Shown: positions 5,739-49,725 of the stretch, piece by piece | Numbering within the stretch: position 1 is the stretch's first letter | How the letters are laid out: the number at the start of each line of letters is the position of its first letter | Assembly (NCBI GenBank): GCA_037441295.1 | Contig: JBBISK010000001.1 | Span: forward strand, 1 to 49,900 | From: Candidatus Aminicenantes bacterium | Lineage (GTDB): Bacteria > Acidobacteriota > Aminicenantia > Aminicenantales > Saccharicenantaceae | DNA length: 49,900 nt | Reading direction: 5' to 3' | Notes under the pieces: model-generated | What the model saw: the letters and a program-made list of their open reading frames with translations, nothing else | Database searches by the model: none | What the model was told of the DNA's origin: nothing | Position numbers and translations under genes: made by a program

Positions 5739-5790
5739 GGGGTCAGGTCTACTTTCTATTAGTTTTCTGAAAGAAAGTAGACCTGACCCC
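5739..5790. repeat. REP-like perfect hairpin (copy A): 19-bp arms GGGGTCAGGTCTACTTTCT / AGAAAGTAGACCTGACCCC, 14-nt loop
   Basis: Read directly from the sequence. It sits 3 nt after the stop of the upstream gene and 85 nt before the RAYT gene. Confidence 0.9.
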
Positions 5791-6834: not shown

Positions 6835-6887
6835 GGGGTCAGGTCTGCTCCTTTGCAGAAGAACTGATAGAAAGTAGACCTGACCCC
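6835..6887. repeat. REP-like element (copy B, degenerate left arm)
   Basis: The left arm GGGGTCAGGTCT (6835-6846) pairs with AGACCTGACCCC (6876-6887). The right arm AGAAAGTAGACCTGACCCC (6869-6887) is identical to copy A. Confidence 0.8.
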
Positions 6888-39645: not shown

Positions 39646-41247
39646 TCAGCGAGGGCGCCGAGCGAGGCCCAGCGCCTCGCGCATGACGGCGTTGACCTGG
39701 GTGTTGTCGATGATGGGACCCGGGTACCAGAGGCCTTCGTAACCCAAGAACAGGCGGGCCGCGGCCCCCCTGGCGGCCAAGGTCACGAGTTCGTTGGTGT
39801 GGCCGATGGTCGAATAGCTAACCTCGCCCCCAGGATAGAAGAAGGGGGACTTCCCGGGAGGGACCCATGGGCCGACGGGGACGTGCCGGCGGCCGTTGGC
39901 CGCCTGCCCGGGTTCGGAAACGTGGGCCTCGGCGGACGCCGGCCTGGCGATCTGGCGCGGCAGCTCCCCGGAGGCCAAAGGCCGATGCGGGTTCAGCCGC
40001 AGCCCGCCCGTCGCATGGTCGGCCGTGACGATGAGCAGCGTGTTCGTCCAGTCGATATCGTCGCCCGGCCGGTCGACGAAGGCAATGGCCGCCCGGACGG
40101 CCGCGTCGAGGTCGGCAACGCAGGCGACCATCCGCCGGAAGTCGTTGTCGTGGTTGGCCCAGTCGATATCGCCCTGCTCGACCATGAGGAAGAAGCCGCG
40201 GGGGTTCCGGCCGAGGACCTCGAGCGCGGCGACGGTGGCGTCCTCGAGGGTGGGGTCTCCGGCGGACTCGCGCGTGAAGCGCGGCGCGCCCGGGCTCTCT
40301 TCCGGGAGGGCCGGGCCGAAGTTGCCGCCGGGCCCGCCGAACAGGCCGAAGAGCTTCTTGCCCCGGGCGACCGCTTCCCCGGCCGCCGCGGCGAGCGTCC
40401 GGCCGCCGTCGGCGCCGGCCTTCTCCTCGGCCAGGATGTAGTCGTTCGAGCCCTGAAGGGCGTGGTAGAGCTTCTCCGAGATATAGCCCTTTTTCGGGTC
40501 GAATCCGGGGTTATCGAAAAGAGGGTGCCCGGCGCCGATTACGACATCGGGTTTCGTCCGGAGGATAACCTCGTCGGCGATGCCGAGCCCGTCGTATCCC
40601 CTGTAGCCGGTGTAGTAATGGCCCCGGCTGGTGTTGTGGCTGACGAAGCCCGCCGGTGTCGCGTGGCTGAAGGGCACGGTCGTGACGACGCCGATCGCGC
40701 CGCCGGCCGCGGCCCGGAAGTCCTCGGCGATCGTCGGCAGGCGGCCGTCCGGAGCGTCGCCGGGCCGCCAGGCGATGTTGCCGCTGATCGTCTTGACGCC
40801 CGTGGCCAGGGCCGTGGCGGCCGAGGCGGAGTCTGTGGCGGGCGCGGCCACGGGCCGGTCGGCACCCGTCGACCCCTCGTCCGGGTACGGGCGGGCCCCT
40901 TCCCGGCGGACGTCGTAGCCCATGGACGGAGTGAAGACGGCCTCCGAATAAGCCGGACGGGCGGCGGCCTTGGCGTTGAGGTCATAGGCCGTGACGTCCC
41001 AGGTCGCGGCGTACCACTGGCCGGGGAGGGAGTGCCAGGCCAGGGTCCGGTCCCTGCCGGTGAGGTAGCGGCTGCCGGCGATCTCTGATTCGAGCGACAT
41101 GCCGTCGCCGATGAAGAGGATGACGTGCTTGGCCCGGGGCTCGGGCGGCGCGGGCGAGGGGGAAGGCCCGGCGGCGACGAGATGCAGCGCGGCCGCGGCC
41201 GCCAGGACCGCGAGCGAACTCCTCAGTGTCGTCCGGCGTTTCAGCAT
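39646..41247 (-). CDS. Secreted alkaline phosphatase (PhoA family)
   Basis: Has a signal peptide. Motifs are ILFIGDGMS, the active-site TDSASAATALATG, and VTADH. Confidence 0.88.
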   Translation of the reverse strand: MLKRRTTLRSSLAVLAAAAALHLVAAGPSPSPAPPEPRAKHVILFIGDGMSLESEIAGSRYLTGRDRTLAWHSLPGQWYAATWDVTAYDLNAKAAARPAYSEAVFTPSMGYDVRREGARPYPDEGSTGADRPVAAPATDSASAATALATGVKTISGNIAWRPGDAPDGRLPTIAEDFRAAAGGAIGVVTTVPFSHATPAGFVSHNTSRGHYYTGYRGYDGLGIADEVILRTKPDVVIGAGHPLFDNPGFDPKKGYISEKLYHALQGSNDYILAEEKAGADGGRTLAAAAGEAVARGKKLFGLFGGPGGNFGPALPEESPGAPRFTRESAGDPTLEDATVAALEVLGRNPRGFFLMVEQGDIDWANHDNDFRRMVACVADLDAAVRAAIAFVDRPGDDIDWTNTLLIVTADHATGGLRLNPHRPLASGELPRQIARPASAEAHVSEPGQAANGRRHVPVGPWVPPGKSPFFYPGGEVSYSTIGHTNELVTLAARGAAARLFLGYEGLWYPGPIIDNTQVNAVMREALGLARRPR

Positions 41248-41309
41248 GACCCTCTATTATACCCCGCGGGAAAAACCGGGCGAACGAGGCTCGCGGACGC
41301 CGCGGTCCC

Positions 41310-41665
41310 TCAGGCCTTTCGGACCTCCCCGATGGGCAGGACCGTCCGGCCCCTGGCCTCGTTCAGGACCTCGGCCATGGCCAGGTAGATCGCCGAAAGC
41401 CCGCACAGGATGCCCTCGAAGCCGGCGGCTCTCCCGACGAGCGCCGAGCCGGTCCAGTCGCGCGTGGCCAGCAGCCAGAACAGGACCGTCAGGCTCAGGA
41501 AGACGAACTGGATGGCCCGGTTCTTGCCGAAGGTCCCGAGCCACATGAAGAAGGTGAACAGGCCCCACAGGAAGAGGTACCAGCCTATGAACGGGACGGG
41601 GTCGCGCCGCCGTTCGGCGCGTTCAGGCCGAGGGGCGCGGGGTTGGCCAGCTCGGTGTCGTCCAT
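41310..41665 (-). pseudogene. Remnant of a GPR1/FUN34/YaaH (SatP-type acetate channel) gene: frameshifted and internally deleted
   Basis: An RBS (AAGGAGGG) and the ATG at 41665 give MDDTELANPAPLGLNAPNGGATPSRS*, which contains the family signature NPAPLGL. A different frame (ORF 41310..41714) then encodes only the C-terminal three helices, FIGWYLFLWGLFTFFMWLGT... Confidence 0.6.
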
Positions 41666-41766
41666 CTTGACCCTCCTTGGGGAATGAAAAATGGTTTTTT
41701 ATGGTATATCTCACCCTTCGCGGGTGTCAAGATGGAGACGGGGCGCCGGCCGGTCCGTCGGCGGCG

Positions 41767-42201
41767 TTACTTGAGCTTGACGTCGACCTCGTTCAACCAA
41801 ATCCCGTGGATATTGCAGCGCTCGAAAACCTTGAGTTTCTCGGGAAAGGCCGCCAAGTGGAAGGTCGCGGTCGGAGCCGAGTCGGTGGGTTTGAATTCGT
41901 GCTTGGCCAGGACCTTGCCGTTGACGTCCTCGACCCGGATCCACATGATGTAGTGCGGCTTGTTGGGATCCATGGGGTGGTTGTCGACCTTTACCGTGAC
42001 CATCAGCGCCGTGCCCATTTTTTCCAAGGTGACCTGGGGAACGTGGGTCTTGGCCACCGCCTCATTCCAGGGGCCGAAGAATTTGGCCGTAAAGGGCTTC
42101 GCCTGGCCCGCTTCCTGGGACCCCCGAGTGACGGTCGAGAGCGCGACGAGGCCGGCAACCACTAGAACGACGGGAACGAGGACCGAAAGAATCTTTTTCA
42201 T
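41767..42201 (-). CDS. Superoxide-reductase-like (desulfoferrodoxin Fe-binding domain) protein with N-terminal signal/anchor
   Basis: Start at MKKILSVLVPVVLVVAGLVAL, preceded by the RBS GAGGAGGG. SOR centre II ligand pattern is present: KTHVP, HPMDPNKPHYIMWI and CNIHGIW. Confidence 0.7.
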   Translation of the reverse strand: MKKILSVLVPVVLVVAGLVALSTVTRGSQEAGQAKPFTAKFFGPWNEAVAKTHVPQVTLEKMGTALMVTVKVDNHPMDPNKPHYIMWIRVEDVNGKVLAKHEFKPTDSAPTATFHLAAFPEKLKVFERCNIHGIWLNEVDVKLK

Positions 42202-42304
42202 CTCACCCTCCTCGATTCCGGGCATCCGCCCGGCTCGCATCCAATATCCCAGAATCCTGACAAAATTTCAAGGAAGGGGAAAAGAGGGACTGTCCCTCTT
42301 CTTC

Positions 42305-43552
42305 TTACATTCCGTACTTGGCGATGATCTCCTGCTTCGTCTTGCCCAGGATGTCGAACTTCTTGCCGACCTTTTTGAACGCGTCCAGGGCCGTGTCGAG
42401 GTGACGGGTCTCGTGGCCGGCCGAGATCTGCGTCCGGATCCGGGCCTGGCCCTGCGGCACCACGGGGAAGAAGAAGCCGATGGCGTAGATCCCCTCGTCG
42501 TAGAGGGCCCGCGAGAAGTCCTGCGACAGCTTGGCGTTGAAGAACATGACCGGCACGATCGGCGTGTCCCCTTCCTTGAGGACGAACCCGGCCTCGGTCA
42601 GCCCCTTGCGCCAGTAGGCGGCGTTGCGCTCGAGCTTGTCGCGCCGCTCGGTCGACTTCGACAGGATGTCCATGACCTTGAGGACGCCGGCCACGACGAC
42701 CGGGGCGATCGTGTTCGAGAAAAGATACGGCCTGGCCCGCTGCCGGCACATCTCGACGAGCTCGCGGCGGCCGCTGACGCAGCCCCCGGACGCCCCGCCG
42801 AGGGCCTTGCCGAAGGTCGTGGTGATGACGTCGATCTTGCCCAGGACGCCGCACTTCTCGTGGGTGCCGCGCCCGGTCTTGCCGATGAAGCCCGAGGCGT
42901 GGGACTCGTCGACGAGGAGCATGGCGTCGTACTTCTCGCACAGGGCGGCCATCTCGTCGAGCTTGGCCGTGTCGCCGTCCATGGAGAAGACGCCGTCGGT
43001 GATGACGACCTTCATCCGCTTGTCGGCGTGGAGCTGGAGCTTCTCCTCGAGGTGGCCCATGTCGGAGTGCTTGAAGGTGTCGTGCATGGCGCTGCACAGC
43101 CGGATGCCGTCGACGAGCGAGGCGTGGACGAGCCGGTCCGAGATCATGACGTCATCCTTGGTCAGGATGGCCTCGAAGACGCCGGCGTTGGCGTCCATGC
43201 AGGAGGGGAAGAGGAGGGTGTCCTCTGTCCCCAGGAACTCGGTCAGGCGATGCTCGAGCTCGCGGTGGATGTCCTGGGTGCCGCAGATGAAGCGGACCGA
43301 GGACATGCCGTAGCCGCGCGACTCGAGCCCCTCGTGCGCCGCCTTGACCACGTCGGGGTGGCTCGACAGCCCCAGGTAGTTGTTGGCGCACATGTTGATG
43401 ACCTTCCGCAGGGGCGAGCCGGCCGGGAACTCGACCTCGATGTCGGCCGCCTGGGGGGAGTGGATGAACCGCTCCTGCTTGAAGAGCCCGGCGTCCTGGA
43501 TGCCCTTGATCTGGGCCTGGTACGTGCCGCGGACGTTGTCGCTGTAGGCCAT
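42305..43552 (-). CDS. Alpha-oxoamine synthase, glycine C-acetyltransferase (Kbl)-like paralog with C-terminal extension
   Basis: Motifs are [30 protein letters not shown] and [12 protein letters not shown] (PLP Lys). By eye it is ~50% identical to the second kbl at 46684..47883. Confidence 0.85.
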   Translation of the reverse strand: MAYSDNVRGTYQAQIKGIQDAGLFKQERFIHSPQAADIEVEFPAGSPLRKVINMCANNYLGLSSHPDVVKAAHEGLESRGYGMSSVRFICGTQDIHRELEHRLTEFLGTEDTLLFPSCMDANAGVFEAILTKDDVMISDRLVHASLVDGIRLCSAMHDTFKHSDMGHLEEKLQLHADKRMKVVITDGVFSMDGDTAKLDEMAALCEKYDAMLLVDESHASGFIGKTGRGTHEKCGVLGKIDVITTTFGKALGGASGGCVSGRRELVEMCRQRARPYLFSNTIAPVVVAGVLKVMDILSKSTERRDKLERNAAYWRKGLTEAGFVLKEGDTPIVPVMFFNAKLSQDFSRALYDEGIYAIGFFFPVVPQGQARIRTQISAGHETRHLDTALDAFKKVGKKFDILGKTKQEIIAKYGM

Positions 43553-43572
43553 GATGTCAACTCCCTACTTTC

Positions 43573-43830
43573 TTACTTCTTCGCCACGAACTCTTCGACC
43601 AGGGTCGCGATCTTGTTGACCGAGTCGAAGGCCTCGGGGGTCGCCTTGTCGTCGGGGATCTGGATGGCGTACTTGTTCTCGAGGAACCGCTTCAGCGAGA
43701 CCATCGAGAACGAGTCGACGATGCCGCCCGAAATGAGGGGCGTATCATAGGTCAGCGGCTCGCTGTCGTCCTCGAGGTATTCCTTGGTGACGTACTTCAG
43801 GACGATGTCCTTCAGGCCTTCGATTGCCAT
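43573..43830 (-). CDS. Carrier protein (phosphopantetheine-binding, DltC-like)
   Basis: 85 aa. GGIVDSFSMVSL carries the DSx Ser attachment motif. The overall pattern resembles D-alanyl carrier proteins more than FAS AcpP. Confidence 0.8.
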   Translation of the reverse strand: MAIEGLKDIVLKYVTKEYLEDDSEPLTYDTPLISGGIVDSFSMVSLKRFLENKYAIQIPDDKATPEAFDSVNKIATLVEEFVAKK

Positions 43831-43846
43831 GGTATGACTCCTTTAT

Positions 43847-45550
43847 CTAATCGTTTTCGAGCGTCGAGGTGTCGCCGATCTCCTCGCCCCATTCCTTGGC
43901 GTGGAGGATGCGGCGCATGATCTTGCCGCTCCGCGTCTTGGGGAGCGACGGCACGAACTCGATCTCCTGGGGCATGGCCAGCGGCGAGAGCTTCTTGCGG
44001 ATGAAGTTCATGATGTCGAGGTCGAGGTCCTTGCTCGGCGCGAAGCCCGGCTTGAGGGTGACGAAGGCCTTGACGACCTCGAGGTTGATCGGGTCGGGCT
44101 TGCTGACGACGGCCGACTCGGCCACGGCCGGGTGCTCGAGGAGGGCCGATTCGACCTCGAACGGGCTGACGAGGTGGCCGGCGGTGTTGATGATGTCGTC
44201 GTCGCGGCCGGCGAACCAGAAGTAGCCGTCCTTGTCGAGCTTGGAGCGGTCGCCGGTGATATACCAGCCGCCGCGGAACTTCTTCTCGAAGGCCTCCTTG
44301 TTGTTCCAGTAGGTCCGCATCCGCGAGGGCCAATCGTACTTGAGGCCGACGAGGCCGATCTTGCCGTGCGCCGGGTACGGCTCGTTCTTCGAGGGGTCGA
44401 GGACGGCGCCGGTGATGCCGGGGAACGGCTTGCCCATGGAGCCCGGCCGCACCTCCATGCCCGGATAGTTGCCGATGACGATGCAGCCGGTCTCGGTCTG
44501 CCAGTAGGTGTCGTAGAAGGGCTTGCCGAAGACCTTCTCGGACCAGACGACGGCCTCGGAGTTGAGGGGTTCGCCGACGCTCGCGAGATGCCGGAGCGAG
44601 GAGAGGTCGAACTTCTTGACGATCTCGTCGCCGGCCTTCATCAGGGAGCGGATGGCCGTCGGGGCGGAGTACCACATCGAGACCCGCCGCTTCTCGATCC
44701 ACTTGTACCAGGCCTCGGCCGAAAATCCGGCGTCGAGGACGCACTGGGTGACGCCCAGGGCGAAGGGGGCGATAATGCCGTAGGAGGTGCCGGTGACCCA
44801 GCCGGGGTCGGCCGTGCACCAGTAGATGTCGTCGTCGCGGAGGTCGAGGACCCACTTGGCCGTGAGGTACTGGGAGATGAGCGAGTAGTGGACGTGCTGG
44901 ACGCCCTTCGGCATGCCCGTCGTGCCCGAGGTGTAGTGGAGGACCGAGGGCGACTCGGCCAGCGTCGGGTGGACGCCGAATTTCTCGACGGGCGCGGCCT
45001 TCTCGAGCGAAAAGGCGACTTCGCGGTCCTTGAGCGGGGCGACGCCGTCGTAATCGACGACGATGATGTGGCGGAGGTGGGGCAGCTTGTCGAGGATCTT
45101 CCGGACCTTGGGGGCGTGCTTCTTCTGAGTGACGACGGCCGAGGTCTCGGCGTTCGAGAGCCGGACGAAGAGCGACTCGTCGCCGAAGGCCGAGAAGAGG
45201 GGCTGGGCGATGCCGCCCATCTTCAGGATGCCGAGAAACCCCAGGTAGAGCTCGGGGATGCGGTCCATGAACAAGCAGACGCGCTCGCCCGGCTGGAGCC
45301 CGAGGCCGCGGAGGAAGGCGCCGATGGTGTTCGTGGCCAGGCGGATGTCGTTGTAGGTGTAGGTCTTCTCCGCGCCGGTGAAGCCCTCCCAGTGGAGGGC
45401 GACCTTCGAGCCCTTGCCCTGGGCGCAGATCCGGTCGGTGCAGTGCCAGCCGATGTTGAGGACGTCGCCGGGCTTCCACCCGAGCTCCTTTTCCGCGATC
45501 TGCCAGGAGAAGTTCTTCAGCCGCTCGTCGTAGGAGCCGATGTTCGACAT
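43847..45550 (-). CDS. AMP-forming acyl/acetyl-CoA synthetase-like adenylating enzyme (AcsA type)
   Basis: Start at MSNIGSYDERL (RBS GGAGG). Motifs are YTSGTTGMPKGV, YSAPTAIR, YWQTETG and PKTRSGKIMRR. The 5' extension of ORF 43847..45814 overlaps acpS. Confidence 0.85.
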   Translation of the reverse strand: MSNIGSYDERLKNFSWQIAEKELGWKPGDVLNIGWHCTDRICAQGKGSKVALHWEGFTGAEKTYTYNDIRLATNTIGAFLRGLGLQPGERVCLFMDRIPELYLGFLGILKMGGIAQPLFSAFGDESLFVRLSNAETSAVVTQKKHAPKVRKILDKLPHLRHIIVVDYDGVAPLKDREVAFSLEKAAPVEKFGVHPTLAESPSVLHYTSGTTGMPKGVQHVHYSLISQYLTAKWVLDLRDDDIYWCTADPGWVTGTSYGIIAPFALGVTQCVLDAGFSAEAWYKWIEKRRVSMWYSAPTAIRSLMKAGDEIVKKFDLSSLRHLASVGEPLNSEAVVWSEKVFGKPFYDTYWQTETGCIVIGNYPGMEVRPGSMGKPFPGITGAVLDPSKNEPYPAHGKIGLVGLKYDWPSRMRTYWNNKEAFEKKFRGGWYITGDRSKLDKDGYFWFAGRDDDIINTAGHLVSPFEVESALLEHPAVAESAVVSKPDPINLEVVKAFVTLKPGFAPSKDLDLDIMNFIRKKLSPLAMPQEIEFVPSLPKTRSGKIMRRILHAKEWGEEIGDTSTLEND

Positions 45551-45572
45551 GTGTTCGATCCTCCGTTCGGGC

Positions 45573-45956
45573 TCAGGCCGGGGCCTTTTCCAGGACAACG
45601 ACCGCCTTGGCCAGGTCCTTGATATGAGAAAGGGAAACCTGCATTCCGGTGATGCCGTGGCCGGCGCAGAACTCGCCGACCTTGCCGTGGACGAAGAGCT
45701 CGGGCTTGCCCAGGGCGTTGTTGATGACCTCGATCTCGGAGAACTTGTGGCCGCCGCTCCAGCCCGTGCCCATGGCCTTGAGGAAGGCCTCCTTGGCGGC
45801 GAAACGGGCGGCATAGTGCTGGGCGGGCCGGTGCTTCGAGTCGCAGTAGGCGATCTCGGTCGGCGTGAAGAGCTTGGTCTTCAGGCCGCCGGTGCGGAGG
45901 AGCTTCTCCTCGACTCGCGCGACCTCGATGATGTCCGTACCAACCCCGAAAATCAA
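45573..45956 (-). CDS. acpS: Holo-[acyl-carrier-protein] synthase (4'-phosphopantetheinyl transferase)
   Basis: MIFGVGTDIIEVARV and AAKEAFLKA are present. Length is 127 aa. The start codon is TTG. Confidence 0.9.
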   Translation of the reverse strand: MIFGVGTDIIEVARVEEKLLRTGGLKTKLFTPTEIAYCDSKHRPAQHYAARFAAKEAFLKAMGTGWSGGHKFSEIEVINNALGKPELFVHGKVGEFCAGHGITGMQVSLSHIKDLAKAVVVLEKAPA

Positions 45957-46053
45957 TGAGATATCGCCTTTCTCAGTGGACGCCGCAGTCGGGGGCGCCC
46001 GGCCCGGCCGCGAGGCGGCGGCCTCGTCCGGGGGCCCGCAAAGACGGACTAGT

Positions 46054-46081
46054 ATTATAAATAAGGCGGGTTAAAAGTCAA
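46054..46081 (-). promoter_or_regulatory. Near-consensus sigma70 promoter for the acpS operon
   Basis: On the minus strand: TTGACT (46081-46076), a 16-nt spacer, then TATAAT (46059-46054). It lies ~95 nt upstream of the acpS start. Confidence 0.6.
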
Positions 46082-46091
46082 AGATCAAGAA

Positions 46092-46144
46092 GGGGTCAGG
46101 TCTACTTTCTTCCAAAAAAAGTGGAAGAAAGTAGACCTGACCCC
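46092..46144. repeat. REP-like perfect hairpin (copy C): 23-bp arms, 7-nt loop
   Basis: GGGGTCAGGTCTACTTTCTTCCA (46092-46114) pairs with TGGAAGAAAGTAGACCTGACCCC (46122-46144). It has the same 19-nt core as copy A at 5739. Confidence 0.9.
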
Positions 46145-46169
46145 ATCCGGCTGACCTGACCCGATCCGG

Positions 46170-46556
46170 CTAGAGGGCGGCGACGACCTTGGCCAGTTTC
46201 GCCCGGACTTCCAACCCGATCGGTTCGAGGGCCGGATTAGCGACCGCCGCCATGGAGGCAATGGGATCGATGGCCGCGACCTCGACCCGGCCGTCCGCAG
46301 TTTCCTGGACGATGACATTGCAGGGAAGCATCAGGCCGATCTTATCCTCGGCCAGAAGGGCTTTGTAGGCGAACGGCGGGTTGCAGGAGCCGAGGATGCG
46401 ATAGTTGCGGAAGTCGACGTTGAGCTTCTCCTTGAGGGTCTTCCGGACGTCGATCTCCGTCAGGACGCCGAAACCCTCCTTCCTGAGCTCCGCCTTGACC
46501 TTCTCGACGGCCGCGTCGAACGGGCCGTCAATTGTCTTGCCGAAATAGTAGCTCAT
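46170..46556 (-). CDS. DUF302 domain protein
   Basis: 128 aa. The pattern GFGVLTEIDV...FRNYRILGSCNP is typical of DUF302, from memory. Confidence 0.7.
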   Translation of the reverse strand: MSYYFGKTIDGPFDAAVEKVKAELRKEGFGVLTEIDVRKTLKEKLNVDFRNYRILGSCNPPFAYKALLAEDKIGLMLPCNVIVQETADGRVEVAAIDPIASMAAVANPALEPIGLEVRAKLAKVVAAL

Positions 46557-46576
46557 GGATCACCTCTCCAAAAGAC

Positions 46577-46680
46577 GGGGTCAGATCTTTATTCTGCCAT
46601 TTTTCAGCGGACATCGCCATGCGGCCATCGTGACCAAGCTTGTGACTCATTAAAAAGTGGCAGAATGGAGATTTGACCCC
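46577..46680. repeat. MITE-like 104-bp element with 23-nt imperfect terminal inverted repeats related to the REP core
   Basis: GGGGTCAGATCTTTATTCTGCCA (46577-46599) pairs with TGGCAGAATGGAGATTTGACCCC (46658-46680), with 20/23 positions complementary. The arms match 18/23 positions of the copy C arm. Confidence 0.75.
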
Positions 46681-46683
46681 ATA

Positions 46684-47883
46684 TTAAACGGCGCCGAGGC
46701 GCTGGCCGACCTTGCGGAATTTTTCGATGGCGAAGTCGATCTGTTCGGGCGTGTGGGCCGCGCTGACCTGAACGCGAATCCGCGACTTCCCCACCGGCAC
46801 GACGGGATAGTAGAAGCCGATGACGTAGATCCCCTCGTCGAGCAGCGCGTTGGCGAAGTCCTGGCTGAGCTTGGCGTCGTTGGGCATGTGGCCCAGGAGG
46901 ACCGGAACGATCGGATGGACCCCGGGAACGATGCGGAACCCGGCCTCCTCCATCCCCTTGCGGAAGCGCCGGGTGTTGGCCATCAGGCGGTCGCGGAGTT
47001 CGGCCGACTCCTCGAGGATCTTGAGGACTTCGACCGTGGCGCCGGCGATGGCCGGGGCGAGCGAGTTCGAAAAAAGGTACGGCCGGGAGCGCTGCCGGAG
47101 AAGGTCGATGATCTCCTGACGCCCCGCGACGCAGCCGCCCGACGCCCCGCCCAGGGCCTTGCCGAACGTCGTGACGATGAGGTCCACCTTATCCATGACC
47201 CCGCAGTGTTCGTGCGTGCCGCGGCCGGTCGGCCCGATGAACCCGGTCGCGTGAGAATCGTCGACGAGGACCAGGGCTTCGTACCTCTCGGCCAGATCGC
47301 AGATCCTGTCGACCTGGGCGATGATGCCGTCCATGGAGAAGACGCCGTCCGTGACTATGAGCTTGAACTTGGCCTCCCGGGCGTGAATGAGCTGGTCTTC
47401 AAGGTCGGCCATGTCGTTGTTGCGGTAGATGTACCGTTTCGCCTTGGCCAGCCGGACGCCGTCGATGATCGAGGCGTGGTTAAGCTCGTCGGAGACGATG
47501 GCGCACCCCTCGTCGAGGAGCGGCTCGAAGACGCCGCCGTTGGCGTCGAAGGCCGACGAGTAGAGCAGCGCGTCATCCATCCGCAGAAAGTCCGCCAGGC
47601 GGCGCTCGAGTTCCTTATGGACACCCTGGGTGCCGCAGATGAAGCGGACCGAGGCCATGCCGAAGCCCCAGCGGAAGAAGGCGTAGTTCGCGGCGGCCAT
47701 GACCCGCGGCTCGTTGCACAGCCCGAGATAGTTGTTGGCGCAGAAATTAAGGACTCGGGCCCCCGACTCGGTGCGGATCTCGACGCCCTGGGGGGTGGCC
47801 AGGACCCTTTCCGTCTTAAAGAGGCCTCGATCCCGGATCTGGCGGAGTTCGGCCTCGAGGTGGTCCTTGAATCGTCCGTACAT
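46684..47883 (-). CDS. kbl: Glycine C-acetyltransferase (2-amino-3-ketobutyrate CoA ligase)
   Basis: 399 aa, collinear with E. coli Kbl as I recall it: [79 protein letters not shown] and SAAHTPEQI. Confidence 0.9.
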
Positions 47884-48000
47884 GATCGTAATCCCTTTCT
47901 CGAACGACGATTAATTATACAGGATAGAGAAGGGACCCGAAAGCGGCCCAACCCCTCAGGCCTAGTCGGTTTCACTCTCATTGCTTCTGACCCCTCGTCA

Positions 48001-48029
48001 TTGACCGACATGATGGGTTGGGATATAAA
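48001..48029 (+). promoter_or_regulatory. Sigma70-like promoter for the MFS gene
   Basis: TTGACC (48001-48006), a 17-nt spacer, then TATAAA (48024-48029). The first ATG (48039) would be only ~3-5 nt from the predicted TSS, implying a leaderless or very short leader mRNA. Confidence 0.45.
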
Positions 48030-48038
48030 CGGACCGCC

Positions 48039-49290
48039 ATGACAGGGGACGTGGCGGCCGTTCAAAACGGAGGCAAGGCGGCTCTCGCTCCGGGGGACAA
48101 GCGTCGCGCCCTCGCCTGCCTCGCCCTGGCCGAATTCCTGGGCATGTCGGTCTGGTTTTCGGCCTCGGCCGTCGTCCCGGCCCTCGGCGCGACCTGGAAC
48201 CTGGGCCCGTCGGGACAGGCCTGGCTGACGATGTCCGTCCAGCTCGGGTTCGTCATCGGCGCCTTCGGGTCCGCCGTCCTTAACATCGCCGACCGCCTCG
48301 ATTCCCGCCTCCTGTTCTCGGCGTCCGCAGTGCTCGCGGCCGGCGCGACCGCCCTCATCCCGGCGACGGCAGCCGGTCCAGGAGCAGCGCTCGTCCTCCG
48401 TCTCGTTGCCGGCATCTTCCTAGCGGGCGTCTATCCCGTCGGCATGAAGATCATGGCCACGTGGACCCGCGCCGACCGCGGCTTCGGGATCGGCCTCCTC
48501 GTCGGGGCGCTGACCCTCGGGTCGGCCGCCCCACATCTCGTCCGGGCCCTGGGCGCGGCCGCGGACTGGCGGCCCGTCCTCTACGTGAGCGCCGCCCTCG
48601 CCGCAGCCGGCGGCCTCGTCGCCCTCGTCCTCTTCCGCGAGGGGCCCGACCGCGCGCCCGCGCCCCGCTTCGACTGGAGATATGCCGGCGGGATCTGGCG
48701 GGACCGGGCCATCGCCCTCGCCAACCTCGGGTACTTCGGGCATATGTGGGAGCTCTACGCGGTATGGACCTGGGTCCCCGTTTTTATCGCCGCGAGCTTC
48801 CGGGCCGCGGGTGTGGCCGACCGGCTGGCCGCCCTAGCGGCCTTCGCCGTCGTCGCCGCGGGCGGCGCGGGCAGCCTCGTCGCGGGGCGGCTCGCCGACC
48901 GCTTCGGCCGGACCGCCGTGACCTCCGTCGATGGCCGCGAGCGGCCTGTGCTGCCTCACGGCCGGCCTTCTTTTCGGGGGAGAACCCTGGTTCCTCCTGG
49001 CCGTCTGCATCGTCTGGGGGTTCACCGTCGTGGCCGATTCGGCCCAGTTCTCGGCGGGCGTGAGCGAACTTTGTCCGCCGGAGCGGACGGGCACGGCCCT
49101 GACGCTTCAAACCAGTCTGGGGTTCCTGTTGACGCTGGTGCCAATCCGGCTCATCCCGACGCTCGAGCGGGCCGTCGGCTGGCGCTGGGCGTTCGCGGCC
49201 CTGGCCGTCGGGCCGGCCCTCGGCATCCTGGCCATGCTCAGGCTGCGGCGTCTCCCCGCCGCGGTCCGGATGGCCTCCGGCCGCCGATGA
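48039..49290 (+). pseudogene. MFS transporter interrupted by a +1 frameshift near 48922-48931
   Basis: The first ~300 codons (ORF 48018..49319) are MFS-like up to ...GRLADRFGRTAVTSV and then degenerate into an Arg/Pro/Gly tail. The continuation MAASGLCCLTAGLLFG...VADSAQFSAGVSEL... lies in frame +1 (ORF 48931..49290). That frame is closed upstream by a TGA at 48919. Confidence 0.7.
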
Positions 49291-49299
49291 CCAGGCAAC

Positions 49300-49725
49300 C
49301 TATAGCCCTTCGATCATGAGGCAGAACTCGTTGTTCTTCCGGTCGGCGTCCGGGATCTTTTTCTTCCGGTCGGAGGTGCCGCAGATCTCGTAGAGCCCGA
49401 TGCTCAGCTTGACCGAGAAGGTGTAGGAGAACTCGTCGCCGGGGTCCAGGGCCCCGATCTGCCGCTTGAAGGTCTTGGCCACCTGCCGGGGGGCGTGGCC
49501 GTTTTTGACGATGATGTCCATGTCCGATTCCGGCGCCGCCGCGGCGCCTTTGTTCCTGACGGTCACGGTGATCTTGACGTCCTGGTTCGGCCTCAGGAGG
49601 GGTGTGGACTTGAGCTGCACGGCCAGGTCCGGCCGGGGCTCGGCCGCAGGAGCGGCGGCTTGGGGGCGGGCCGCCGTCGCGGCCAGGAGCGCCGCTCCGA
49701 CGACGAAAGCGATCCTCTTTCCCAT
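49300..49725 (-). CDS. Secreted CARDB-domain protein
   Basis: Start at MGKRIAFVVGAALLAATAA (RBS GGAGG). PDLAVQL...VKITVTVRNKGAAAAP is the typical CARDB pattern. Confidence 0.7.
   Translation of the reverse strand: MGKRIAFVVGAALLAATAARPQAAAPAAEPRPDLAVQLKSTPLLRPNQDVKITVTVRNKGAAAAPESDMDIIVKNGHAPRQVAKTFKRQIGALDPGDEFSYTFSVKLSIGLYEICGTSDRKKKIPDADRKNNEFCLMIEGL

Follow-up and report, generated by a model that had tools for sequence, protein, structure and literature searches.

An acpS, AcsA-like adenylase, carrier protein and Kbl-like synthase operon of Candidatus Aminicenantes suggests a carrier-tethered link between acetate and glycine

What would a small carrier protein do between a relative of acetyl-CoA synthetase and a relative of 2-amino-3-ketobutyrate CoA ligase (Kbl)? 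The question is raised by an operon in a 49,900-nucleotide (nt) stretch of Candidatus Aminicenantes DNA (GCA_037441295.1, contig JBBISK010000001.1, positions 1 to 49,900; hereafter the window). Four genes lie head to tail on its minus strand (Table 1), encoding a phosphopantetheinyl transferase (acpS), an AcsA-like adenylating enzyme, a carrier protein and a Kbl-like alpha-oxoamine synthase (AOS). The intergenic gaps are 22, 16 and 20 nt and a GGAG-type ribosome-binding site is found at each, in agreement with the tight spacing described in the original prediction, which was made from the letters of the DNA. That prediction also proposed that the AcsA-like enzyme loads a short-chain acid on the adjacent carrier and that the AOS condenses it, a proposal now supported by the co-conservation of the genes, by an acetate pocket and the loss of Arg526 in the adenylase, and by sister loci in which the AOS is replaced by a membrane-bound O-acyltransferase (MBOAT). 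We consider it moderately probable that the operon specifies a CoA-independent, carrier-tethered link between acetate, glycine and 2-amino-3-oxobutanoate.

To place the operon in context, a scan with the carrier alignment was applied to species-representative genomes, one genome per species. It returned at least 594 carrier-encoding stretches, and the counts given here refer to the best 80 of them, in which neighbours were identified by tblastn with the window proteins; denominators vary by gene. The adenylase gene is directly upstream of the carrier gene in 67 of 74 loci and the AOS gene directly downstream in 67 of 68, and the few loci without one or the other are frameshifted or truncated contigs. 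The acpS gene is found upstream of this triad in 52 of 70 loci. The synteny that the original prediction had asked for is thus present, the triad being nearly universal. Because the same gene order recurs in 80 loci from several phyla, the four-gene arrangement is not chance. Identities to the window proteins are 73-92% for the adenylase and 69-95% for the carrier, with a median of 83% for the AOS, and the carrier gene, whose product is as conserved as both enzymes, overlaps or nearly abuts the AOS gene. Since identity stays this high while the GC content of the host loci ranges from 32 to 68%, it appears to reflect strong long-term constraint and not recent transfer.

The module occurs almost only in uncultured anaerobes. 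Annotations of the metagenome-assembled genomes (MAGs) that carry it include Aminicenantes, Acidobacteriota, Bacteroidales, Zixibacteria, Delongbacteria, Elusimicrobiota, Cloacimonadota, Bipolaricaulota and others; among the matches listed, the closest loci are from Candidatus Aminicenantes MAGs, with the AOS 96% and the carrier 95% identical. A protein search with the carrier gave at least 7999 clusters, the 120 best of which are at least 84% identical, and about 60 representatives at 50% clustering with E <= 1e-10. For a Bacteroidales AOS, the 120 closest relatives share a length of exactly 415 amino acids (aa) and are without exception of metagenome or MAG origin. Publicly, the parts are named 'acetate--CoA ligase', 'acyl carrier protein' and 'glycine C-acetyltransferase'.

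The adenylase was assigned the ATG at 45550 as its start (MSNIGSY...), which has a GGAGGA ribosome-binding site; all orthologues are 567 aa long. A 655-aa reading frame (43847-45814) that begins 264 nt farther upstream and overlaps acpS in another frame was rejected as an artefact. The hallmarks of acetyl/propionyl-CoA synthetases first noticed in the sequence, YSAPTAIR and YWQTETG, are both present, and a PKTRSGK motif is conserved. The protein passes the curated acetate--CoA ligase model NF003313, barely above the cut-off (752.6 bits against 729), and its best match in the PDB is a 572-aa acetyl-CoA synthetase chain (9g79, 578 bits), which we take to be B. subtilis AcsA. Sequences of 60 clade members were aligned together with those of E. 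coli Acs and 9g79. The acetate pocket V310, T311, V386 and W414 (E. coli/S. enterica numbering) and the catalytic K609 are kept in 58-60 of the 60. Because these pocket residues are conserved, the acid is predicted to be acetate, or at most propionate; the inspection of the acyl pocket that had been suggested as a measure of chain length thus yields a Trp-closed acetate pocket and bears out the short-chain acid.

The same alignment revealed a change at the site where CoA would be used. Arg526, in the GHRL sequence of the A8 motif, is replaced by leucine (GHLV) in all 60 AOS-linked adenylases, whereas E. coli Acs and 9g79 have the arginine; HMMER alignments to PDB chains display the same change. 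Ser523 is replaced by Ala or Gly in the clade. Three highly conserved arginines, Arg526/528 among them, are needed to bind CoA and to form the thioester, and in the Methanothermobacter enzyme the R528A variant is unsaturable for CoA, while R528K and R528Q lower kcat 130-326-fold (PMC10455477). Among the three positions R191, R526 and R584, R526 is thus Leu and R584 is retained. The R191 column holds P, S, G or A in the clade, but the alignment is ambiguous there, in a Lys/Arg-rich stretch, and Arg191 was set aside as a sign of lost CoA binding. The absence of one arginine of the CoA/thioester step throughout the clade suggests a changed thiol step.

A candidate for the alternative thiol is the phosphopantetheine of the 85-aa carrier. 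At default thresholds the carrier had no Pfam match, PP-binding included, and its best NCBIfam match, 'ACP for OlsHI', reached 57 bits against a cut-off of 130; this identity was rejected, being below the cut-off and named for a system, OlsH/OlsI, whose paper does not involve this carrier. The AlphaFold2 model (predicted local distance difference test score, pLDDT, 86) has the carrier-protein fold, a helical bundle with helices at 3-18, 40-54 and 71-83, in which Ser40, the residue to be modified, opens helix 2. The best sequence matches in the PDB are the Bmp1 carrier domain, PltL, PigG and DltC. With Foldseek, the best matches are PigG and PltL (TM 0.84-0.87) and DltC, including its complexes with DltB and AcpS, and the glycine carrier 4h2u is also among the fold matches. 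The nearest sequence and fold relatives of the carrier are therefore carriers loaded by stand-alone adenylases (PigG, PltL, the Bmp1 domain, DltC and glycine carriers). The serine motif VDSFSMVSL, described earlier as DltC-like, is present, and DltC is among the best fold matches. More distant relatives (31-45% identity) usually adjoin some AMP-binding enzyme; in a metagenome scan these were mostly other pairs of an acyl carrier protein (ACP) and an AMP-ligase without an AOS, and have precedent value only.

The first gene of the operon would supply the prosthetic group. The acpS product scores 90 bits with TIGR00516 (cut-off 59.8) and also matches PF01648, confirming the phosphopantetheinyl transferase that had been recognised. 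That it is dedicated to this carrier, as was also claimed, could not be demonstrated: the protein is of the ordinary AcpS type, its identity to the window copy ranges from 31 to 95% across loci, far more divergent than the adenylase-carrier-AOS triad, and in some genomes the gene is unlinked from the triad.

The strongest comparative argument that the window adenylase loads the adjacent carrier comes from sister loci in which the same adenylase clade and carrier are paired with an MBOAT. On a Bacteroidales-type metagenome contig (L090, 1367-6067), a 567-aa adenylase has 73% identity to that of the window and the same motifs GHLVSPFE and DTFWQTETG. Downstream of it come a carrier with 67% identity to the window carrier, then an MBOAT of 490 aa and a protein of 354 aa without a family match. 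Pfam family PF03062 matches the MBOAT, and DltB (157 bits) is the top hit for it in NCBIfam. A search with the L090 carrier gave 2821 relatives, and the context of three of these led to the order adenylase (567 aa), carrier, MBOAT on independent contigs (L169-L175), one of which sits inside a glycosyltransferase-rich region. The MBOAT-linked carriers are 60-67% identical to the window carrier. Identity between MBOAT-linked and AOS-linked adenylases is 71-76%, as high as that among AOS-linked enzymes of different phyla, and Leu stands in place of Arg526 in four of four MBOAT-linked enzymes. In the Dlt pathway, the acyl group is loaded on the carrier by the adenylase and then collected from it by the MBOAT. 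By this analogy, the simplest reading is that the adenylase clade and the carrier form an acetyl-carrier-generating module with two alternative acceptor enzymes, and the sister loci may represent an acetate-driven, Dlt-like O-acetylation pathway. These loci vary in detail. A protein of 292-354 aa without a family match stands beside the MBOAT in L090 and L169-L173, L174 and L175 being without it; L169 and L170 have an extra 477-aa gene after the carrier, and the L169 MBOAT is on the opposite strand.

The AOS belongs to the Kbl clade. It exceeds the cut-offs of two Kbl models (TIGR01822, 564.9 bits against 493; NF005394, 564.1 against 460), its best PDB match is Cupriavidus necator Kbl (E = 2e-139), and it is 52% identical to the second Kbl of the window, close to the 50% first estimated, with the extra C-terminal tail ILGKTKQEIIAKYGM present as described. 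The comparison set consisted of 68 sequences of the clade and 19 of orthodox Kbl, E. coli Kbl (EcKbl) among them. The substrate cavity of C. necator Kbl is formed by N52, V81, H138, H215, L274, F275 and R370 (PMC9814548). The corresponding seven residues (EcKbl N50, V79, H136, H213, L272, F273 and R368) are kept in 66-68 of 68 AOS sequences, as are S185, D210, T241 and K244 (EcKbl), which serve pyridoxal phosphate (PLP). Because the Kbl cavity is unchanged, the substrates are most likely glycine and an acetyl group.

Outside the cavity, the AOS departs from orthodox Kbl. Eleven positions are non-overlapping between the two groups (L9Y, Y108F, S109P, F112M, G116A, A128V, N135V, L264C, S268A, F309W and V352A), and a 15-residue C-terminal tail, ILGKTKQEII.KYG, is conserved across the clade. 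In a neighbour-joining (NJ) tree, the AOS sequences form a tight group, sister to a tailed paralogue (AOS2) and apart from orthodox Kbl; the AOS thus stands in a clade of its own, set off by the 11 fixed substitutions and the added tail. Of the groups with which a comparison had been recommended (Kbl, BioF, Spt, CqsA and HemA), it is Kbl that the AOS stands beside. The Spt models gave 236-308 bits against cut-offs of 500-670, BioF gave 359 against 426, and ALAS and CqsA were also below their curated family cut-offs; these identities were rejected. The AlphaFold2 model of the AOS was poor (mean pLDDT 58.5, shallow alignment) and was not used to place residues, its only confident feature being a tail helix at 406-413. 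The gene context points to the carrier protein, and not acetyl-CoA, as the likely thioester partner of the AOS.

The genes that recur around the triad belong to threonine and acetate metabolism. A 323-aa protein of the short-chain dehydrogenase/reductase (SDR) type was identified as L-threonine 3-dehydrogenase (Tdh), its best PDB matches being threonine dehydrogenases (E = 1e-128 to 1e-75). Its gene lies directly upstream of acpS, with no orthodox Kbl between, in L082 (1021-1992), L026 and L031 (annotated Zixibacteria) and L044 (3876-4847; annotated Ignavibacteriales), and is fragmented at that place in L032 (Zixibacteria). Another five loci (L001, L017, L043, L068 and L072) have an SDR-type gene at a distance of up to about 7 kb. 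A zinc-type Tdh is near the triad in L035, giving 11 loci with Tdh; neither type was found in the window. The Tdh neighbours and the unchanged Kbl cavity together tie the AOS to 2-amino-3-oxobutanoate as its likely product or substrate. Orthodox Kbl is encoded upstream in 17 of 60 loci, and the window copy groups with E. coli Kbl in the NJ tree. AOS2, of 419 aa, directly follows the AOS in the Delongbacteria-type loci L027, L057, L059, L060, L062 and L073; it is about 58% identical to both AOS and Kbl, Kbl-type at most clade-specific positions and AOS-type in its tail. In L032, L044, L061 and L082 (Zixibacteria, Ignavibacteriales), an AOS-family gene with 34-36% identity is downstream in place of AOS2.

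Acetate transporters recur in three arrangements (downstream SatP, upstream SatP in divergent orientation, or upstream ActP), and this recurrence ties the adenylase to acetate. SatP is downstream in 18 of 61 loci, and SatP or ActP is within the flanks in 24 of 80. Intact SatP follows the AOS gene in many relatives. The window has a satP remnant with an intact ribosome-binding site and start, MDDTELANPAPLGL, after which about 100 codons are lost and the frame changes; the part that can be aligned with full-length SatP of relatives is confined to the C-terminal 86 residues (41334-41591). An 894-aa Pat-like acetyltransferase, with NDP-forming (nucleoside diphosphate-forming) acyl-CoA synthetase domains and a C-terminal GNAT domain, is encoded near the triad in 16 of 80 loci (L072, 9187-11871, and 15 others). 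Pat-type enzymes acetylate the lysine of the PKTRSGK motif in Acs. Since the adenylase retains this motif, its regulation by lysine acetylation is possible.

The proposed pathway can be put together from these elements. AcpS would turn the apo-carrier into the holo-carrier, as its family does. The adenylase would convert acetate to acetyl-AMP and then acetylate the phosphopantetheine thiol of the carrier instead of CoA, as comparative genomics and the active-site residues suggest. The AOS would then condense acetyl-S-carrier with glycine in a Kbl-type Claisen condensation, giving 2-amino-3-oxobutanoate, which could be reduced to L-threonine by threonine dehydrogenase or decarboxylate spontaneously to aminoacetone. 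Marcus and Dekker (1993) reportedly found that the coupled Kbl/Tdh reaction can form threonine. The module would probably give the cell a private acetyl pool, in which the condensation is driven by ATP and is independent of the acetyl-CoA/CoA ratio that governs orthodox Kbl. A more general proposal is offered tentatively, as we think it somewhat unlikely in its full extent: that many uncultured anaerobes have a CoA-independent two-carbon metabolism, in which an Acs-derived acetate:[carrier protein] ligase builds an acetyl-S-protein pool that drives Kbl-type condensation with glycine, an ATP-driven way to 2-amino-3-oxobutanoate and threonine, and, in sister loci, feeds DltB-like MBOATs for transmembrane O-acetylation.

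Several points weigh against a carrier-tethered pathway. The adenylase passes the curated acetate--CoA ligase model, retains Arg584 and an Arg aligned with Arg194, and may still use CoA. The AOS likewise passes the curated Kbl model with its cavity unchanged and may simply use acetyl-CoA, and with a pLDDT of 58.5 its clade-specific residues are not placed relative to the thioester channel. The recurrent second Kbl-type enzyme (orthodox Kbl, AOS2 or the 34-36% paralogue) has no clear rationale in such a pathway. Finally, gene order, conservation, family membership, residue patterns and sister loci were observed, and from them every step of the mechanism, including catalysis, the acyl donor of the AOS and the direction, was deduced.

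The direction is where the best-surviving alternative departs from this proposal. In a threonine fermentation, Tdh would oxidise threonine, the AOS would cleave 2-amino-3-oxobutanoate with the holo-carrier thiol to glycine and acetyl-S-carrier, the adenylase would run in reverse with AMP and pyrophosphate to release acetate and ATP, and SatP would export the acetate. Kbl catalyses a reversible reaction that usually proceeds as cleavage in the cell, SatP-type channels work either way, Tdh and orthodox Kbl recur as neighbours, and the host lineages are anaerobic. Among the enzymes of amino-acid metabolism encoded in the window itself are a lysine 2,3-aminomutase, a PLP decarboxylase and a class IV aminotransferase. 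Syntrophus aciditrophicus reportedly has an AMP-forming Acs that works in reverse, which would be a precedent. However, the MBOAT-linked adenylase of the same clade must run in the acetate-activating direction, an ActP-type symporter beside the adenylase (L059) points to uptake, and there is no obvious reason to prefer a protein thiol over CoA in ATP synthesis. We regard the fermentative direction as unlikely.

Less probable still is ordinary metabolism as annotated, with a normal acetyl-CoA synthetase, a CoA-dependent Kbl isozyme, and acpS and carrier genes that are unrelated or housekeeping. Both enzymes are above their NCBIfam equivalog cut-offs (752 against 729; 565 against 493), the acetate pocket, K609, R584 and the Kbl cavity are retained, and the genes for acetate transporters and a Pat-like acetyltransferase are of a kind that typically accompanies Acs. 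This account leaves aside a carrier that stands between the two enzymes across phyla, equally conserved and overlapping or nearly abutting the AOS gene (67 of 68 loci), and a leucine at position 526 in every clade member examined. It also does not foresee that the same adenylase-carrier pair recurs with a DltB-like MBOAT, or that the AOS stands apart from orthodox Kbl by 11 fixed differences and a tail in genomes that often have orthodox Kbl as well. A specialised-metabolite or signalling route, in which acetyl-carrier and an amino acid would give an alpha-aminoketone such as aminoacetone on the way to pyrazines, a short sphingoid-like base or a cofactor precursor, follows a logic common to natural-product and sphingolipid clusters with AOS, carrier and adenylase, and pyrazines are known to arise from aminoacetone made by the Tdh/Kbl route (PMC9814548), but it is very improbable given that no tailoring, reductase, N-acyltransferase or export genes are conserved beside the triad, that the AOS fails the Spt, BioF, ALAS and CqsA cut-offs, and that the very high cross-phylum conservation and primary-metabolism neighbours argue for a core role.

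Compared with known systems, the carrier-tethered pathway would work like a hybrid of Dlt logic, with its stand-alone adenylase and small carrier, and Tdh/Kbl chemistry. With the Tdh/Kbl pair (E. coli Kbl, 1FC4; C. necator Kbl, 7BXP), the AOS shares the PLP fold, the NCBIfam equivalog and the cavity and PLP residues, and Tdh also recurs beside the operon; it differs in its separate clade, fixed substitutions and conserved tail, and in a gene placed directly after those of the carrier and adenylase, the donor being presumably acetyl-S-carrier and not acetyl-CoA. The adenylase resembles short AcsA-type acetyl-CoA synthetases (9g79; S. enterica Acs, 1PG4/2P2F) in length class, V/T/V/W acetate pocket, K609 and PKTRSGK, and differs in the changes at Arg526 and Ser523, the carrier neighbour and the putative acylation of a protein thiol. 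The Dlt system has a comparable stand-alone ANL enzyme and a carrier of about 80 aa with a DS(x) phosphopantetheine site, and AcpS can modify DltC, as in the AcpS-DltC complex (PMC9338922; PDB 7r49). In the operon, by contrast, the predicted acyl group is acetate and not D-alanine, the adenylase is of Acs and not DltA descent, and the acceptor in the window is a soluble PLP condensing enzyme and not an MBOAT. Neither an MBOAT (DltB) nor a DltD partner is present in the window, MBOAT being found only in the sister loci L090 and L169-L175.

The Caulobacter Spt/ACP/acyl-ACP synthetase system, to which the operon was originally likened, shares its logic, a dedicated carrier loaded by an adenylase and an AOS that condenses the acyl group with an amino acid. 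The likeness stops at the mechanism, however: the window AOS is of the Kbl clade with an unchanged glycine/acetyl cavity and is not an Spt, and the predicted acid is C2 and not long-chain. No long-chain acyl-ACP synthetase, ketosphinganine reductase or ceramide synthase was found in the window or among the conserved neighbours, which confirms the earlier statement that no ceramide synthase or reductase is nearby. BioF acting with pimeloyl-ACP is a precedent for ACP-dependent AOS chemistry, and AlmE/AlmF and the Bradyrhizobium glycine:[carrier protein] ligases show that stand-alone adenylases can load small carriers; none of these precedents matches the operon in substrates or enzyme clades. 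Full-text literature searches on AOS/Kbl with ACP and Acs, on acetyl-ACP with 2-amino-3-ketobutyrate, on MBOAT with ACP and Acs, and on acetyl-ACP synthetase/ligase found no description of the system, and one on the role of Arg526 likewise gave none. Placement in an already characterised pathway would have counted against the original prediction, and no such pathway or paper emerged from these searches.

Table 1. Positions of the operon genes, their expression signals and neighbouring features in the window
Feature	Coordinates	Strand	Basis or remark
acpS, AcpS-type 4'-phosphopantetheinyl transferase, 127 aa, TTG start	45573-45956	-	TIGR00516, PF01648
AcsA-like adenylating enzyme, 567 aa, proposed acetate:[carrier protein] ligase	43847-45550	-	NF003313, PDB 9g79
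Carrier protein, 85 aa, Ser40 in motif GGIVDSFSMVSL	43573-43830	-	AlphaFold2 fold, PDB sequence/fold matches
Kbl-clade AOS, 415 aa, proposed carrier-dependent glycine C-acetyltransferase	42305-43552	-	TIGR01822, cavity residues, NJ tree
Sigma-70-like promoter, TTGACT-16-TATAAT	46054-46081	-	11/12 positions match; top site in 41000-48500
Palindrome with 26-nt arms, similar to repetitive extragenic palindromes (REP-like)	46089-46147		between operon promoter and upstream DUF302 gene
Short hairpin, AGAGGGA-CAG-TCCCTCT then TTT	42283-42299	-	read directly after AOS stop codon
satP (acetate/succinate channel) remnant	41310-41714	-	start remnant ~41666; internal deletion or frameshift
Orthodox kbl, 399 aa, recurrent operon neighbour	46684-47883	-	NF005394, 616 bits against 460

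Expression signals were sought by promoter, terminator and Rfam scans of positions 41000-48500. The near-consensus promoter reported earlier is the best site of this region, which holds five promoter-like sites against 0.7 expected from shuffles. The palindrome upstream of it is probably the terminator of the DUF302 gene, insulating the operon. At the other end, the short hairpin is a possible weak terminator, although the terminator scan did not flag it. For a regulatory RNA, riboswitch or leader, the Rfam scan of this region (E <= 1) yielded nothing beyond chance matches of the hairpin type, which lay far under the gathering scores, and the two REP-like copies that flank the DUF302 gene gave spurious microRNA-like matches. 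The palindrome belongs to an intergenic family, GGGGTCAGGTCTACTTTCT...AGAAAGTAGACCTGACCCC, at gene ends (5740-5789, 6836-6886 and 46093-46143, with a longer variant at 46572-46685), whose core motif occurs 9 times against about 2 expected.

Two further genes near the operon were noted. Between the AOS gene and the satP remnant, a 157-aa protein (41767-42240, minus strand) combines a membrane anchor or signal at its N-terminus with an iron-binding domain of the desulfoferrodoxin/neelaredoxin type, and may act outside the cytoplasm in the manner of a superoxide reductase; a desulfoferrodoxin-fold gene is found at this place only in the closest relatives (L006, L007 and L013). On the plus strand, a major facilitator superfamily (MFS) transporter gene (48018-49319) is frameshifted near 48923-48928, the L001 orthologue matching frame 3 up to 48923 and frame 1 from 48928, and is either a pseudogene or an assembly error.

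The module is widespread and strongly conserved across phyla, and its members are named in databases as routine housekeeping enzymes; the parts of the operon are probably mis-annotated. If the carrier-tethered pathway is correct, the Acs lineage would gain a new class of substrate, a protein thiol in place of CoA, and a carrier-dependent Kbl would be defined by this module. The MBOAT sister loci offer a testable answer to the question of where some MBOAT O-acyltransferases obtain their acyl groups. Should the more general proposal of a CoA-independent two-carbon metabolism hold, thousands of 'acetate--CoA ligase' and 'glycine C-acetyltransferase' annotations would be wrong, and the acyl donor would be identified for one or more classes of bacterial MBOAT O-acetyltransferases. 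For the organisms themselves, the carrier-tethered pathway would be a new coupling of acetate, glycine and threonine, with a bearing on metabolic reconstructions of Aminicenantes, Bacteroidales, Zixibacteria, Cloacimonadota and other groups.

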